From an uncultured Clostridia bacterium (lineage in GTDB: Bacteria; Bacillota; Clostridia; TANB77; CAG-508): 64,000 nucleotides of DNA. Both the position numbers and the translations under genes were made by a program. The stretch is taken from the NCBI GenBank assembly GCA_947627755.1, contig CANQXD010000004.1, forward strand, positions 6,441-70,440. Direction: 5' to 3'. The notes beneath the pieces are model-generated. The model made no database searches and was not told the DNA's origin. It saw only the letters and a list, made by a program, of their open reading frames with translations. Position 1 is the stretch's first letter, and every line of letters starts with the position of its first letter. Shown piece by piece: positions 2,986 to 63,657 of the stretch.

Positions 2986-3095
2986 TACCATTGGGGACGT
3001 TTCCTTTTGGTATATCTGTCCCTTTTGGTACTTTATTATAACAATGTAATTACCATTAGGGACAGATATACCAAAAGGAAACGTCCCCAATGGTC
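2986..3095. repeat. two inverted copies of GGGAC-core element family A, forming a hairpin with a stem of about 35 bp
   Basis: CCATTGGGGACGTTTCCTTTTGGTATATCTGTCCC (about 2988-3022) is the reverse complement of about 3059-3093. The same unit recurs at 22467, 32560, 32721, 32968, 46163 and 63605. Confidence 0.85.
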
Positions 3096-3106
3096 CCCAA
3101 CAATAA

Positions 3107-4399
3107 CTATGCATAGGCATGTTTTTTCTTGAAAGCTAATAGATTTGTAATTTCTGACTCTGTATTTTTTGCTTTTTTAGTTTTTTCAGCCTTTTCTTGT
3201 GCAATTTGTTTTGCTTGTTTTTCTGCCATTGTTTGACAAATTGCTTTTTGATATGTAAAGTGTGTATCTTGTGCTATTTTATTCCAGTTGTAACATTCTT
3301 TTACTTTTGCTTTTGCATTTTTTGCTACATTTGCTGCTAATTGATGGTCATATAGCAAGCTTAAAATAGAGTCTGCAATAGAATTTGCATTTCCTGCATA
3401 ACTTTTCATTCCTGTTACTCTATGCTCTACTATTTCATTTAATCCACCAATATCGGATACTACTGTTGGAACGCCTGCAAGCATTGCCTCTAATGCTACA
3501 ATACCAAATGGTTCATAAGTGCTTGGAAATACAGCAATATCACTGCATTTATACATTTTTTGTACTTGTTTTGAGTCTAAATAACCAGTAAAATATACTT
3601 TATTATCTATTCCCATAGCGTGTACTTGGGCTTTCAGTTCATCTAACATTCCACCTTTTCCTGCAATAATTAGTTTGCTATCGTGGTAATTTTCCAATAT
3701 TTTTGGCATAGCAGAAATTAAGTGTTGAACTCCTTTTTCATAAACTAGTCTTCCCATATATAGAATTATTTTTTCATTATCTAGTGCATATTGTCTACGG
3801 AAATCATAATCTCTTTCTATACCAGAGAAATTATTTAAATTGATTCCATTTGGAATAACGTTTATTTTATCAAAAGGAAGTCCAAATAGTCCTTGAATAT
3901 GTCCTTTCATAAAATTGCTATTTACAATCACTTCTGTAGATTCATAAGTAAGCATCCATTCTACATCATTTATATAACGTTGCGTTTCATCATGAATTCC
4001 GTTATTTCTACCAGATTCCGTCGCATGAATAGTACTTACAAGTGGAATATCGTAAGCATGTTTTAAAGTTTTTGCACTATTTGCTACTAACCAATCATGT
4101 GCATGAATTACATCAAATTTCCCTTGTTTTGCAATAATTTCCGATGCCTTTGCCACCATATTAAAATTTAATTGCATAATCCAGTCGATAAAGTTGTTTG
4201 GCTGAATCATATCGTTATCGACACGATATACTTCTACTCCTTTGTCGTTTTCGTAGTAAGGCATATTTCCTTCTCTATATGTTACTACGGTAACATCATG
4301 TCCGTCTTTGATAAGACGCTGTGATAAATCGTGCACAACTCTTGCAATTCCTCCTACAATTCTTGGTGGATATTCCCATGTTAGCATCAATATTTTCAT
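3107..4399 (-). CDS. GT4/GT5-type glycosyltransferase (alpha-glucan/glycogen synthase-like)
   Basis: MKILMLTWEYPPRIVGGIARVV N-terminus and FPSTYEPFGIVALEAM GT-B motif. The ATG at 4399 has an AAAGGGG RBS. The track start at 4426 is a TTG alternative. Confidence 0.8.
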   Translation of the reverse strand: MKILMLTWEYPPRIVGGIARVVHDLSQRLIKDGHDVTVVTYREGNMPYYENDKGVEVYRVDNDMIQPNNFIDWIMQLNFNMVAKASEIIAKQGKFDVIHAHDWLVANSAKTLKHAYDIPLVSTIHATESGRNNGIHDETQRYINDVEWMLTYESTEVIVNSNFMKGHIQGLFGLPFDKINVIPNGINLNNFSGIERDYDFRRQYALDNEKIILYMGRLVYEKGVQHLISAMPKILENYHDSKLIIAGKGGMLDELKAQVHAMGIDNKVYFTGYLDSKQVQKMYKCSDIAVFPSTYEPFGIVALEAMLAGVPTVVSDIGGLNEIVEHRVTGMKSYAGNANSIADSILSLLYDHQLAANVAKNAKAKVKECYNWNKIAQDTHFTYQKAICQTMAEKQAKQIAQEKAEKTKKAKNTESEITNLLAFKKKHAYA

Positions 4400-4611
4400 A
4401 GGCTTTTTTTGCCCCTTTCTTCCCAATTTTCTTTTGTTAATTTTGTTTTCTTTATTCTATACAACTTTTCGATAAAAGTAAACATTTTTTGATAAAATAT
4501 TTACTTTTTTATTCCATTTTTTATTTTTCTTTTTATTATCTATTGAATTTCTTTTCTTTTTGATATAGTATATAAGGAAGAAAAGTATGAAATTTTACTA
4601 AGGAGGAAATT

Positions 4612-5499
4612 ATGCTAAGAAAAGCAAAAGAAGAAGTAAAAAATGTCGAAAAAGAAACAATAAAAAAATCAAAAGCTTCTACAAAAAAATCAACTAATAC
4701 TAAAAAAGCTTCTAATATTGAAAAAAAGTCTGGTAGTAAGCAATCTTCTAATATATCTAGTAGTAAAAAAGCACTAGAACCTGTAAATAAAGTAACAGCT
4801 AAAAAAACAGCTAAAAAAGATAATGCCAAGAACACATTAAACAAGAAAACTCCTAGTAAAAAAGTTTCAACCAAAAAAGTAACTACTAAAAAGCCAACTT
4901 CTAAGAAACAAGCTTCAAAAATTGCTATTAGTGAATATTATGACTTACCTTATCGCTATAATCAAACCGTCGTAAAAGTTTTAGCACAAACACCAAATAC
5001 TCTATTTGTTTATTGGGACATTTCAGACGAAGATAGAAAAAATTATATTGAGCAATATGGACCTTACTTTTTTAATGATACAAAACCTGTTTTAGTAGTA
5101 CATAATAAAACTAAAAATTATGACTTCGAAGTAGATATTGACGATTTTGCAAATAGCTGGTATCTTCATTTAGTTGATAGCAATTGTGAATATGAAATTG
5201 AACTTGGAAGGCGTCCTATCAATGAATATGCAAAAATAGAAAATTATTTACCAATTAGTAATTCCAATTCTATGGAATCACCAAATGACCACATTTTGTT
5301 AGATAAATTATCTCACGTTATTTACTTTAAAAATGTAAAAACAAATGAGGTAAAAACTAAAACCACCTTAAGTCTTCTTAAGAAAATTGGTAAAATTTCT
5401 TCTATGGCTGAGTTTTATCAAAAATTATATCCAGAAGAAGAAATTAATTTTACAAAATTAGATTTAAGAAATCCATCTTCTAGTTCTTTCTTTAAGTAA
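4612..5499 (+). CDS. DUF4912-domain protein with Lys-rich low-complexity N-terminus
   Basis: YDLPYRYNQTVVKVLAQTPNTLFVYWDISDEDR resembles the DUF4912 signature that accompanies GH57/GT4 alpha-glucan genes. Confidence 0.65.
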   Translation: MLRKAKEEVKNVEKETIKKSKASTKKSTNTKKASNIEKKSGSKQSSNISSSKKALEPVNKVTAKKTAKKDNAKNTLNKKTPSKKVSTKKVTTKKPTSKKQASKIAISEYYDLPYRYNQTVVKVLAQTPNTLFVYWDISDEDRKNYIEQYGPYFFNDTKPVLVVHNKTKNYDFEVDIDDFANSWYLHLVDSNCEYEIELGRRPINEYAKIENYLPISNSNSMESPNDHILLDKLSHVIYFKNVKTNEVKTKTTLSLLKKIGKISSMAEFYQKLYPEEEINFTKLDLRNPSSSSFFK

Positions 5500-5635
5500 A
5501 ATCTAAGAATATAAAATAATTTTTTTTGATTATGAAAGAAATATAAACTTTAATTTATATATAATGACTTTGCGAACTAATTACTTACTACTTAGTTCGC
5601 AATTGTTTTGACAAATTTGACAAAGGAGAAAAATT

Positions 5636-61763: not shown

Positions 61764-61795
61764 AAATCAAACCCAAAAAACAAACTAGAAAAACC

Positions 61796-61831
61796 CAAAA
61801 AAATGAGTGAAAAATTTTCACTCATTTTTTT
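61796..61831. terminator. bidirectional intrinsic terminator
   Basis: AAAAAAATGAGTGAAAAATTTTCACTCATTTTTTTT. Confidence 0.75.
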
Positions 61832-61903
61832 TGACTTTTTTCTTTTTTAACTTCCAAGCTGTTAAATCTATGTCTTTACATTTAGTTTATCATATCTGTT
61901 TTT

Positions 61904-63532
61904 TTAGTACATTCCTTCCATTCCAGTTGGTGCTGGTTCATGGTTGCAACATTTTTCTTCTTTCTTTTCTGTTACAATACTTTCTGTTGTAAGTACCATT
62001 GAAGCAATAGATGCTGCATTTTGTAGTGCACTTCTAGATACTTTCGTTGGGTCTACAATTCCTGCTTTTTTCATATCTACATAAGTATTGTTTGCTGCAT
62101 TAAAGCCAATTCCTTTTTCGCTTTGTTTTACTTTTTCTACAATAACGGCTGGCTCTAAACCTGCGTTAATGGCGATTTGTTTTGCTGGTTCTTCTAATGC
62201 TTTTAATACAATTTTTCCACCTAATTTTTCTTCTTCGTCTAAACTATTAACTGTTTTTTCTACTTCTGGAATAATGTTTAGGTAAGCTGTTCCACCACCT
62301 GCTACAATTCCTTCTTCTACAGCTGCTTTTGTTGCAGATAAAGCATCTTCAATTCTTAGTTTTTTATCTTTCATTTCAATTTCCGTTGCTGCACCTACGC
62401 CAATTACAGCTACACCACCTGCGATTTTTGCTAAACGTTCCTGTAAAGTTTCTTTTTCAAATTCGCTCTTTTCTTCTGTAATTTGTGCTCTAATTTGAGC
62501 TACACGGTCTGCTATTTGTTGTTTATCTCCTGCACCATCTACAATTATTGTATTTTCTTTTTGAATTTTTACTTGTTTTGCTCTACTTAATTGTTCGATA
62601 GTTGTATCTTTTAATTCTAGACCTAAATCAGAAGTAATGACTTCTCCTCCTGTTAATACTGCCATATCTTGTAGCATTGCTTTTCTTTTATCGCCATAGC
62701 CTGGTGCTTTTACAGCTACTACATTTAGCACACCTCTTAATTTATTTAATACAAGAGTAGATAAAGCTTCTGCTTCTACATCATCGCAAACAATAACTAA
62801 TTTTCCAGATTGTTGCATTAAAGTTTCTAGTAATGGTAAAATCTCTTGAATGTTTGCAATTTTCTTATCGGTAATTAAGATATATGGATTATCCATTACT
62901 GCTTCCATTTTCTCGGTATCGGTTACCATGTAAGGAGAAACATATCCTTTATCAAATTGCATTCCTTCTACAACATCTAATTCTGTATTAGAAGTTTTTG
63001 ATTCTTCAATAGTAATAACACCATCTTTTGATACTTTTTCCATTGCTTCGGAAATTAGTTTTCCTACTTCTTCACTATTAGCAGAAATGCTTGCCACTCT
63101 TGCAATATCTTCTTTTCCGTTTACGCTACTGCTAATTTTTTTCAATTCTTCTACTGCTTTTTCTACAGTTTTATCCATTCCTCTTTTAATTGCCATTGGG
63201 TCTCCACCTGCTGCTACATTTTTAACGCCTTCTTTAATCATGCTTTGTGCTAATACGGTAGCTGTTGTTGTACCATCTCCTGCTACATCGTTTGTTTTTG
63301 TAGAAACTTGTTTTACAAGTTGTGCTCCCATATTTTCAAATGCATCTGGAAGTTCGATTTCCTTTGCAATAGTAACTCCATCGTTTGTAATTAGAGGAGA
63401 ACCAAATTGTTTATCTAATACTACATTTCTTCCTTTTGGACCTAATGTTACCTTTACTGTATCTGCTAATTGGTTTACTCCGTTTAATAAACTTTTTCTG
63501 GCATCTTCGCCAAATTTAATTTCTTTTGCCAT
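61904..63532 (-). CDS. groL: chaperonin GroEL
   Basis: [39 protein letters not shown] ... [10 protein letters not shown]. Confidence 0.97.
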
Positions 63533-63560
63533 AATAAAATTACCTCCTAATTTTTTATTT

Positions 63561-63657
63561 GATTGCCATTTGGGACGGGCTATTTTGGCAATTTATTGCC
63601 ATTTGGGACAGACCTCATATCGTAGGAATACCAAAAAGAAACGTCCCTAATGGTACC
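63561..63657. repeat. composite GGGAC-core repeats filling the groES-groEL spacer
   Basis: ATTGCCATTTGGGAC occurs twice (about 63562 and 63595) and is the reverse complement of the module at 16087. Region 63605-63657 is a family A copy (minus strand GGTACCATTAGGGACGTTTCTTTTTGGTAT...TCTGTCCC). Confidence 0.75.

Follow-up and report, generated by a model that had tools for sequence, protein, structure and literature searches.

The 64,000 nucleotides (nt) of DNA analysed here – positions 6,441 to 70,440 of contig CANQXD010000004.1 from an uncultured Clostridia bacterium, referred to below as the window – are strewn with miniature hairpin repeats built around the pentamers GGGAC and GTCCC. We consider it likely that these elements form a superfamily of palindromic repeats resembling REP (repetitive extragenic palindromic) sequences and REPINs (REP doublets forming hairpins), and that they belong to the system of a RAYT (REP-associated tyrosine transposase), an enzyme of the HUH/Y1 type, of the variety known as subclass 2.1 or ‘TIRYT’. 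The existence of the dispersed GGGAC/GTCCC hairpins is confirmed: they are enriched beyond composition and can be aligned formally. Their arms covary, and in related genomes the same sequences bracket the gene of a RAYT-class protein. Repeats of this kind are already known, and we found no description of them for this lineage of uncultured low-GC gut Clostridia.

Enrichment and architecture of the GGGAC/GTCCC repeats

The first-pass annotation of this DNA, made by a model from the letters of the sequence, had reported at least 20 loci of such repeats, in which GC-rich pentamers were said to be concentrated almost entirely despite being rare by composition. The excess itself is real. In the window, which has a GC content of 29.6% and carries most of its genes on the minus strand, GGGAC occurs 44 times on the two strands, against 22.6 ± 4.3 expected, and none of 100 dinucleotide shuffles reaches 44. 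Intergenic DNA makes up only 13% of the window but holds 28 of the 44 copies – an 11-fold enrichment, second among all 5-mers only to that of CGTCC – and the core GGGACGTTTCC, allowing at most one mismatch, is found nine times where 0.08 would be expected. Our census gives 18 loci (about 22 units) rather than at least 20; together they span about 1.0 kb, or 1.6% of the window, and contain 33 of the 44 pentamers. The other 11 are ordinary coding occurrences, which in about 55 kb of coding DNA are near or below expectation and lack the WTTW flank of the elements.

The similarities between copies also hold up when tested by formal repeat finding, which recovers family B as three copies of 62 nt with 89–94% identity and family A as pairs of 37–55 nt with 77–97% identity. 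All sequences quoted in the annotation were located within two bases of where it had placed them, and the exchange of modules that it described is borne out, as the module at 16089 is the reverse complement of that at 63562, and the one at 20345 equals that at 36929. Matches to Rfam in the window are limited to two tRNAs; at the elements, searches at gathering thresholds and at permissive E-values returned only chance matches of the miRNA-like hairpin kind. Viral contigs scanned with the family A core gave no match, and a metagenome scan with a 20-mer from family A gave just five, one of them a chance hit (66% GC) and another the contig of L083, one of the relatives’ loci (numbered with L) discussed below.

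All families share a common core, consisting of GGGAC, 0–4 bases and then GTCCC or a weaker YCC, set in hairpins. Family D forms a near-perfect palindrome, x5-AATTR-GGGAC-W-GTCCC-YAATT-x5', in many cases with AAATGGGACAATTTG(G/T)AC after it. Family A has three arms, X-w-GGGAC-AGAT-X-w-AAC-GTCCC-w-X', as well as a short form, X-w-GGGGACGTTTCC-w-X', that makes a simple hairpin. Family B, whose architecture was found again in more than ten species, reads GGGACNNNCC-T4-[6–7 bp hairpin]-W3-GGGACNNNCC and then a T-run, and in family C the core caps a 10-bp AT-rich stem. The conserved blocks in the alignments of families A and D are GGGAC, AGAT and AAC-GTCCC.

Across genomes the core is invariant, while the arms are specific to each genome and change together: copies of one genome have an arm in common, such as GTACC in the window, TGTCAG in L045, TGTCGCA in L036 and GACGC in L092. 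Among 16 family A copies from nine genomes, 90% of the cells in the covariation analysis are paired, and all five arm pairs have changed on both sides; the covariation score is reached by none of 500 shuffles. Family A moreover keeps both of its alternative pairings, that of X1 with X' and that of X2 with X'. In the 31 aligned copies of family D, 85% of the cells are paired, with double changes in the outer arms.

A RAYT-class transposase in related genomes

The earlier observation that no transposase or RAYT-like gene is visible in the window stands, as a tblastn search of its 64 kb with the RAYT-like protein of the relatives as query found none. The relatives themselves, however, offer a candidate for the dedicated protein that the annotation had conjectured, namely a putative RAYT-class Y1 transposase whose gene is flanked by family D or family A elements. 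Screening of the relatives’ loci for open reading frames (ORFs) bracketed by elements led to L017:9100-9945, which encodes a protein of 281 amino acids between a gene for a FAD-dependent protein and dnaE. This protein matches the Pfam family Y1_Tnp at 2.7e-14 and scores 81.6 bits on the NCBIfam model REP_Tyr_transpos (cutoff 80) versus 23 bits on the IS200 model. It has homologues in L083 (a metagenome contig that also bears family A units like those of the window), L036, L045 and L081, and truncated ones in L028 and L037. Scores across the family are 57–82 bits on REP_Tyr_transpos, with one protein above the cutoff of 80, and 20–23 bits on the IS200 model. A database search returned 1,647 homologues at E < 1e-10, all of them Y1_Tnp.

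The RAYT-like proteins of the relatives are 257–281 amino acids long and share an invariant HUH motif, the catalytic Tyr in YIHxNP and an SS motif that follows it. Searching the PDB with a single sequence proved too weak, and a profile of the family was needed; its sole match is 4ER8, the E. coli TnpA-REP protein bound to REP (3.6e-5). At the C-terminus of the L045 protein, residues 220–258 give weak matches to HTH_23, HTH_28 and Xre-like helix-turn-helix (HTH) domains. The protein fits subclass 2.1 on the strength of domain features and motifs rather than of phylogeny.

The flanks of the gene tie it to the repeats. Inverted copies of family D lie on both sides of the RAYT gene in L017, L083, L087, L088, L090, L092 and L098, in a geometry that places one unit about 200 nt upstream of the gene and the other directly past its stop. 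In L081, GGGAC..GTCCC hairpins stand on either side of the gene; a family A copy lies immediately downstream in L036 and L045, and L045 has, in addition, a short family A hairpin some 490 nt upstream, separated from the RAYT gene by a small gene, which makes for a looser bracketing. Six further contexts contain a single RAYT gene in the conserved order GH15 (glycoside hydrolase family 15) or Ham1, RAYT, radA, disA, and the RAYT-bearing contigs carry family D and A copies at other spacers and inside the GH15 gene as well. In the window, the module at 36371..36440 is the same as the inner end of the sequences flanking the RAYT gene in L087, L088 and L090, and the composite at 36887-36945 (GCAATTAGGGACAGTCCCAAATTGAGACAAACGGGACAATTTGTACCGCCCC) is nearly identical to the upstream RAYT flank in L090. 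These family D modules of the window bracket a small HTH gene (36459..36857) in the position taken by the RAYT gene in L017. An element preceding the Shine–Dalgarno sequence of dnaE in many species had been considered as a conserved dnaE leader RNA; this reading was dropped when they turned out to form the 3' flank of a RAYT gene upstream of dnaE.

The abundance of the pentamer differs widely between relatives. Its ratio of observed to expected occurrences is 2.6–3.9 in L001-L005, L017 and L027, 2.2 in L030 and 0.2–0.9 in most of 80 species. Loci with an intact RAYT gene (L036, L045 and L017) have ratios of 1.4–3.8, versus 0.56–0.71 for those with a truncated one (L028 and L037), a suggestive indication, from four or five loci, that GGGAC enrichment tracks the intactness of the RAYT.

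Two further observations concern this neighbourhood. In L028 (9376-9978) and L037 (9262-10035), deletions truncate or fuse the RAYT gene, removing the C-terminal HTH and the downstream element, and few GGGAC elements are present there. In L090 (11100-11300), and also in L092-L097, the radA gene beside the RAYT gene has a +1 frameshift at its Walker A motif, giving GSLVLLRW.. instead of GSLVLLGGEPGIGKST; the frameshift recurs in several independent assemblies.

Element loci, turnover and rival explanations

The element loci of the window are as follows; where no strand is named, none is assigned.

2986..3103, family A inverted doublet (REPIN-like), with arms at 2987-3033 and 3048-3094, 94% complementary, around a 14-nt centre; it folds at -80.6 kcal/mol, has no T-run and sits between the stop of a GT4 glycosyltransferase gene and a ylbF-like gene
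8205..8252, GGGACGGAGC-type hairpin, recognised by its fold, in a convergent spacer (7342..8193 plus strand, 8262..8663 minus strand); its GGGACGGAGCA module is also present in L002, L004 and L027
11726..11787, minus strand, family B, 89% identical to the 12266 copy, with a T-rich tail on the minus strand
12266..12327, minus strand, family B, beginning 2 nt past the stop of the Ham1-like gene 12329..12901; a long hairpin and then UUCUUUUU
14400..14449, family C hairpin in a convergent spacer, -30.4 kcal/mol, with T-runs on both strands
16077..16130, minus strand, family B variant with a GGCAAT/ATTGCC inner hairpin, 84% complementary to 63572-63614, followed by a T-run
18921..18982, minus strand, family B, 94% identical to the 12266 copy, with a terminator-scan match at 18942-18925 and GGGACGTCCC at 18963
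20325..20360, minus strand, family D-like hairpin GTAGCAATTAGGGAC..CCCCAATTGCTAC, past the stop of 20368..20739, followed by a T-run
20822..20852, family C hairpin directly past the stop of 20854..21510, with no clear T-run
22460..22509, one degenerate family A unit in a convergent spacer, detected by repeat finding
32553..32750, composite of two family A units, a full one (32553-32606) and a short hairpin (32719-32750), in the spacer that separates dnaE from the next gene; 198 nt, in which perfect 20-nt terminal inverted repeats GTACCTTTGGGGACGTTTCC ... GGAAACGTCCCCAAAGGTAC enclose about 110 nt of AT-rich non-coding DNA
32969..33031, family A unit, in frame inside dnaE, 97% complementary to 46161-46197
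36371..36440, minus strand, family D module (..TTTGGGACAATTTGTAACAGCCC) between the HTH gene 36459..36857 and dnaE
36887..36945, minus strand, family D composite, palindrome GCAATTAGGGACAGTCCCAAATTGAG plus ACAAACGGGACAATTTGTACCGCCCC
40570..40601, family C hairpin with the core ATCCC, past the stop of a P-type ATPase gene, kept in L002 with GGGACGCGTCC
46161..46197, short family A hairpin with GTCTC/GAGAC arms, between two M23-like genes, with no T-run
63562..63657, composite of a GGCAAT-hairpin unit and a family A unit, filling the groES-groEL spacer

Two of the copies named in the annotation need qualifying: the one it placed at 22467 is a family A unit, albeit a degenerate one, and the family C hairpin at 40570 is present but has ATCCC instead of GTCCC in its core. 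Most elements are intergenic, as had been claimed, but the copy at 32969-33031 lies in frame in dnaE, and that at 11726-11787 inside ORF 11683..12174, which reads through it to give a C-terminus of ...DAPFRSKMERLGHPF... in translation. The modules GGGGACAG and GGGGACAC are present in units of families D and B.

Most elements abut or overlap stop codons, at a distance of 0–3 nt, and they occupy tandem and convergent spacers, filling three of the four real convergent ones versus none of the four divergent ones. A T-run follows the hairpin on the sense strand in all four family B copies (that at 16077 included) and in the 14400 and 20325 copies; family A copies have none, nor, clearly, do the family C copies at 20822 and 40570, and the composite within the groES-groEL operon, whose spacer measures 125 nt, likewise lacks one. 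From position, fold and T-runs, family B and some C and D copies probably double as terminators; for family A, position and fold make a role as transcript stabiliser or processing site more likely. A consensus terminator scan was too crude for classifying the elements.

The copies change between close relatives by tandem duplication, module swaps and replacement. The group to which the window belongs comprises gut metagenome-assembled genomes (MAGs) deposited as ‘Clostridium sp. CAG:245/273/354/571/780’ and similar, and its closest relative locus is L002, from a rabbit MAG (CANQFS01), with 96% amino-acid identity in DnaE and about 91% nucleotide identity. Within the elements, the two differ by one 23-nt and two 35-nt tandem module duplications and by a 50-nt indel: at 36371..36440 the window is 50 nt longer, and at 36887..36945 L002 carries two additional 35-nt tandem units. 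Also within the elements, four changes clustered in 9 nt convert a GAGAC arm into GGTAC, amounting to a module swap. In the spacer between the GT4 and ylbF-like genes, relatives whose flanking genes are 91–96% identical have a doublet, a single unit with a 55-nt insert, or half a unit.

When orthologous loci are compared for filled and empty sites, the place past dnaE proves to be filled, empty or occupied by another type of element. It is empty in L009, L010 and L013, where the dnaE stop is 3 nt from the next ATG (versus 208 nt in the window); a family D element occupies it in L003, L004, L006 and L015, and one of family A in the window and L002. The elements even supply the end of the gene: a short family A hairpin provides the last codons and stop of the window’s dnaE (…CTFGDVS*), and a family D unit does so in L003, L004, L015 and L006 (…VSIGDCP*, …AIGDSPQL*). 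Further upstream, the in-frame family A unit at 32969..33031 encodes VPLGVPLGTFPKETSVPFGTS in a variable linker of DnaE; this unit is found in the window and L002, with diverged relics in L003-L005 and L015; the other aligned species have a shorter linker or none. A related in-frame dnaE copy was seen in the nucleotide sequence of L065/L072, without formal alignment (the rows of these two were blank in the alignment of the proteins), and in L090 and L092 further intragenic copies lie in frame in the GH15 gene. No direct repeats were seen flanking the elements when the flanks of those inspected were compared by eye, without a formal test.

Could these be no more than the intrinsic terminators and mRNA hairpins of an AT-rich genome, made alike by a shared GC clamp and local duplication, with no mobile system behind them? 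All four family B copies and some of families C and D are indeed long hairpins with a sense-strand T-run directly past stop codons, the elements favour convergent over divergent spacers, and the architecture of family B is kept across many species. Yet family A lacks T-runs and sits inside the groES-groEL operon and the dnaE reading frame, copies at unrelated loci are alike over 37–62 nt with 89–97% identity that extends to the loops, and the GC-rich part is always one pentamer, not just any GC clamp. Nor would terminators be expected to bracket a RAYT gene in inverted orientation or to replace one another, type for type, at one orthologous site, so that we regard this explanation as improbable. 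Still less probable is that the elements are miniature inverted-repeat transposable elements (MITEs), which would derive by deletion from a DDE-type insertion sequence and be mobilised, by way of their terminal inverted repeats, by a transposase whose gene lies elsewhere. In favour of this, two loci have terminal inverted repeats: perfect ones of 20 nt enclose non-coding DNA in the 198-nt composite at 32553-32750, and the doublet at 2986-3103 has inverted arms of 47 nt. Against it, single units and short hairpins occur as often as doublets, and the arms covary as hairpins. No direct repeat was seen beside the doublet or the composite in the comparison by eye, again without a formal test, and the only transposase found beside the elements is of the HUH/Y1 type, with no DDE insertion sequence seen.

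A third possibility, that GGGAC is a DNA-level signal meant for something other than a transposase – an uptake sequence, the target of a GGGAC-specific restriction-modification system, or a nucleoid-protein or regulator site – and that the hairpins are secondary, would suit a core that is short and invariant in variable surroundings. In Neisseria and Haemophilus, uptake sequences are often found as inverted pairs within terminators, and five proteins of the window have prepilin-type N-termini. We nevertheless give this idea very little credence, because GGGAC is not enriched in coding DNA (the 11 copies, without WTTW flank) and is depleted in most relatives; the architecture with its covarying arms, moreover, indicates a folded structure, and the association with a RAYT is not something that a DNA signal would predict. 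Three narrower readings were also rejected – a sigma-54 promoter for TGGCAATTGATTGCC, a LexA box for CGTTCC..GGAACG and an integron attC site for AAC|GTCCC – as the arms differ between genomes and the neighbouring genes have no common function.

Several points weigh against assigning the elements to a RAYT system. As the window has no RAYT, the link is drawn from relatives whose flanking genes are 75–80% identical at the nucleotide level, and the flanks of the RAYT gene are of families D and A only, with B and C tied to it through the shared core alone. No transposition event was seen directly, and the tandem duplications and conversions that distinguish the window from L002 can arise without a transposase. 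The published repeats of group 1 or subclass 2.1 RAYTs are only moderately abundant, in contrast to some 18 loci in 64 kb here, and an unpaired GTAG at the 5' foot of the hairpin is not conserved in the alignments of families A and D. The roles proposed for the transcribed hairpins, finally, are read from position, fold and T-runs.

If the elements do belong to a RAYT system, the protein would recognise the folded hairpin on single-stranded DNA and cut beside the conserved core, copying or moving units and doublets without target duplications, as may be extrapolated from RAYT and IS200/IS605 biochemistry (PMC3479197 and general background). Tandem duplication and gene conversion between copies would add local change, and selection would spare copies where they are tolerated, namely directly past stop codons, between the genes of operons and, in frame, within protein linkers. 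On transcription, the hairpins would act as RNA 3'-end structures, and their position and fold suggest terminators for family B and some C and D copies, and 3' stabilising or processing hairpins for family A.

More tentatively, this clade may hold an unusually dense and diversified RAYT–repeat system of a kind undescribed for Gram-positive bacteria, in which one single-copy HTH-bearing RAYT would serve several architectures that share only the core, their arms re-tuned in each genome, and in which the host would have co-opted the repeats as standard terminators (family B), operon-spacer hairpins and linker peptides in essential proteins such as DnaE. We think this possible rather than probable. 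Were it true, subclass 2.1 RAYTs, so far tied only to modest repeat families, could drive REPIN-like populations. Independently of this wider reading, the likely assignment to a RAYT system extends RAYT-associated repeat populations to a low-GC Firmicute lineage known only from metagenomes. The pairing of concrete repeats (families D and A) with a RAYT subfamily of about 1,650 homologues can be tested in vitro. For annotation, it matters that ORFs are lengthened or disrupted by the elements (as in the linker and at the stop of dnaE, in ORF 11683..12174 and in GH15) and that spurious small ones are created; the elements also break assemblies, and mark fast-changing spacers usable for strain typing.

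Other features of the window include a type III toxin-antitoxin toxN gene (21874-22425, plus strand; Pfam PF13958, 8e-43), just upstream of which two direct repeats of about 55 nt (21715-21826) might constitute a short antitoxin RNA of the ToxI type; no longer repeat array was detected at toxN by Tandem Repeats Finder. The clpX gene (24990-26734, minus strand) has an in-frame TAA after codon 278 (25898-25900), beyond which the ClpX sequence goes on without a change of frame; a nonsense mutation, an error of sequencing or read-through could account for this. The five proteins with a prepilin-type N-terminus are large (351–659 amino acids) and encoded at 14481-20127, 38964-40247 and 52690-54669 (minus strand); two of them are paralogues, 77–88% identical. 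Gene 38964..40247 is absent from L002, which is 91% identical and has a family B-like element at that place. Coding tandem repeats comprise six 36-nt units in mutL (59590-59850) and about seven 12-nt units in gene 16134..16958 (16255-16374). There is also a second kind of repeat, without the GGGAC core, at 1074-1186 and 51855-51958: a pair of adjacent hairpins joined by CATAWTTRTC, with 71% identity between the two spacers.

Comparison with known repeat systems

The annotation had likened the repeats to the REP, BOX, Correia and RPE (Rickettsia palindromic element) systems. The likeness to REP, accompanied by a RAYT in relatives, fits, while BOX and Correia are unsupported; as for RPEs, the resemblance extends to the in-frame copy in dnaE and not to structure. 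Like RPEs and the CGTC-tagged REPs (PMC3733652), the present hairpins also occur in frame in essential genes – here dnaE – and contain CGTC, within the ACGTCCC of the core. The CGTC REPs, however, have an unpaired terminal CGTC tag, an 8–9 bp stem starting with AT, a loop of 4–5 nt, a CCA tail and no transposase (PMC3733652), whereas here CGTC is internal and partly paired, stems and loops differ and a RAYT is associated.

In several respects, the elements resemble the classical REPs, bacterial interspersed mosaic elements (BIMEs) and REPINs that go with group 2/3 RAYTs in Enterobacteria and Pseudomonas (PMC3116915, PMC2817692, PMC3479197). Like these, our elements are imperfect palindromes of 30–60 nt that also form inverted doublets, lie past genes and in operon spacers and turn over rapidly; they likewise show no target duplications (flanks compared by eye) and go with a single, vertically inherited RAYT flanked by the repeats. 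They differ in that the conserved part is the GGGAC..GTCCC inside the stem, and in that the RAYT is longer (257–281 amino acids) with a C-terminal HTH and the host is a low-GC Firmicute.

The best counterpart is provided by the RAYT-like genes flanked by inverted repeats that share GGGGWSAS rather than GTAG REPs, named ‘TIRtrons/TIRYTs’ by Di Nocera et al. (PMC3733652), whose dispersed families are described as moderately abundant, with intragenic REPs concentrated in replication and repair genes (PMC3733652). Most TIRYTs fall into subclass 2.1, characterised by C-terminal DnaA_C, HTH_23 or HTH_28 domains and matching Bertels’ group 1 (Quentin et al., PMC6006769), and group 1 RAYTs also occur in Clostridia (PMC5581495). 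The present system differs from these in having several architectures (A–D) on one core, genome-specific arms and some in-frame genic copies. It resembles them in having a RAYT-class Y1/HUH protein whose C-terminus weakly matches HTH domains, and in the dispersal of the flanking-repeat copies as singles, dimers and clusters, some of them self-complementary. The inverted repeats that flank the gene, too, contain GGGGACAG or GGGGACAC, fitting GGGGWSAS / GGGG[AT][CG]A[CG]; because of this fit, and as both the GTAG tag and the features of CGTC REPs and RPEs are absent, we class the elements as TIRYT-type RAYT-associated repeats that would behave as REPs and REPINs do.

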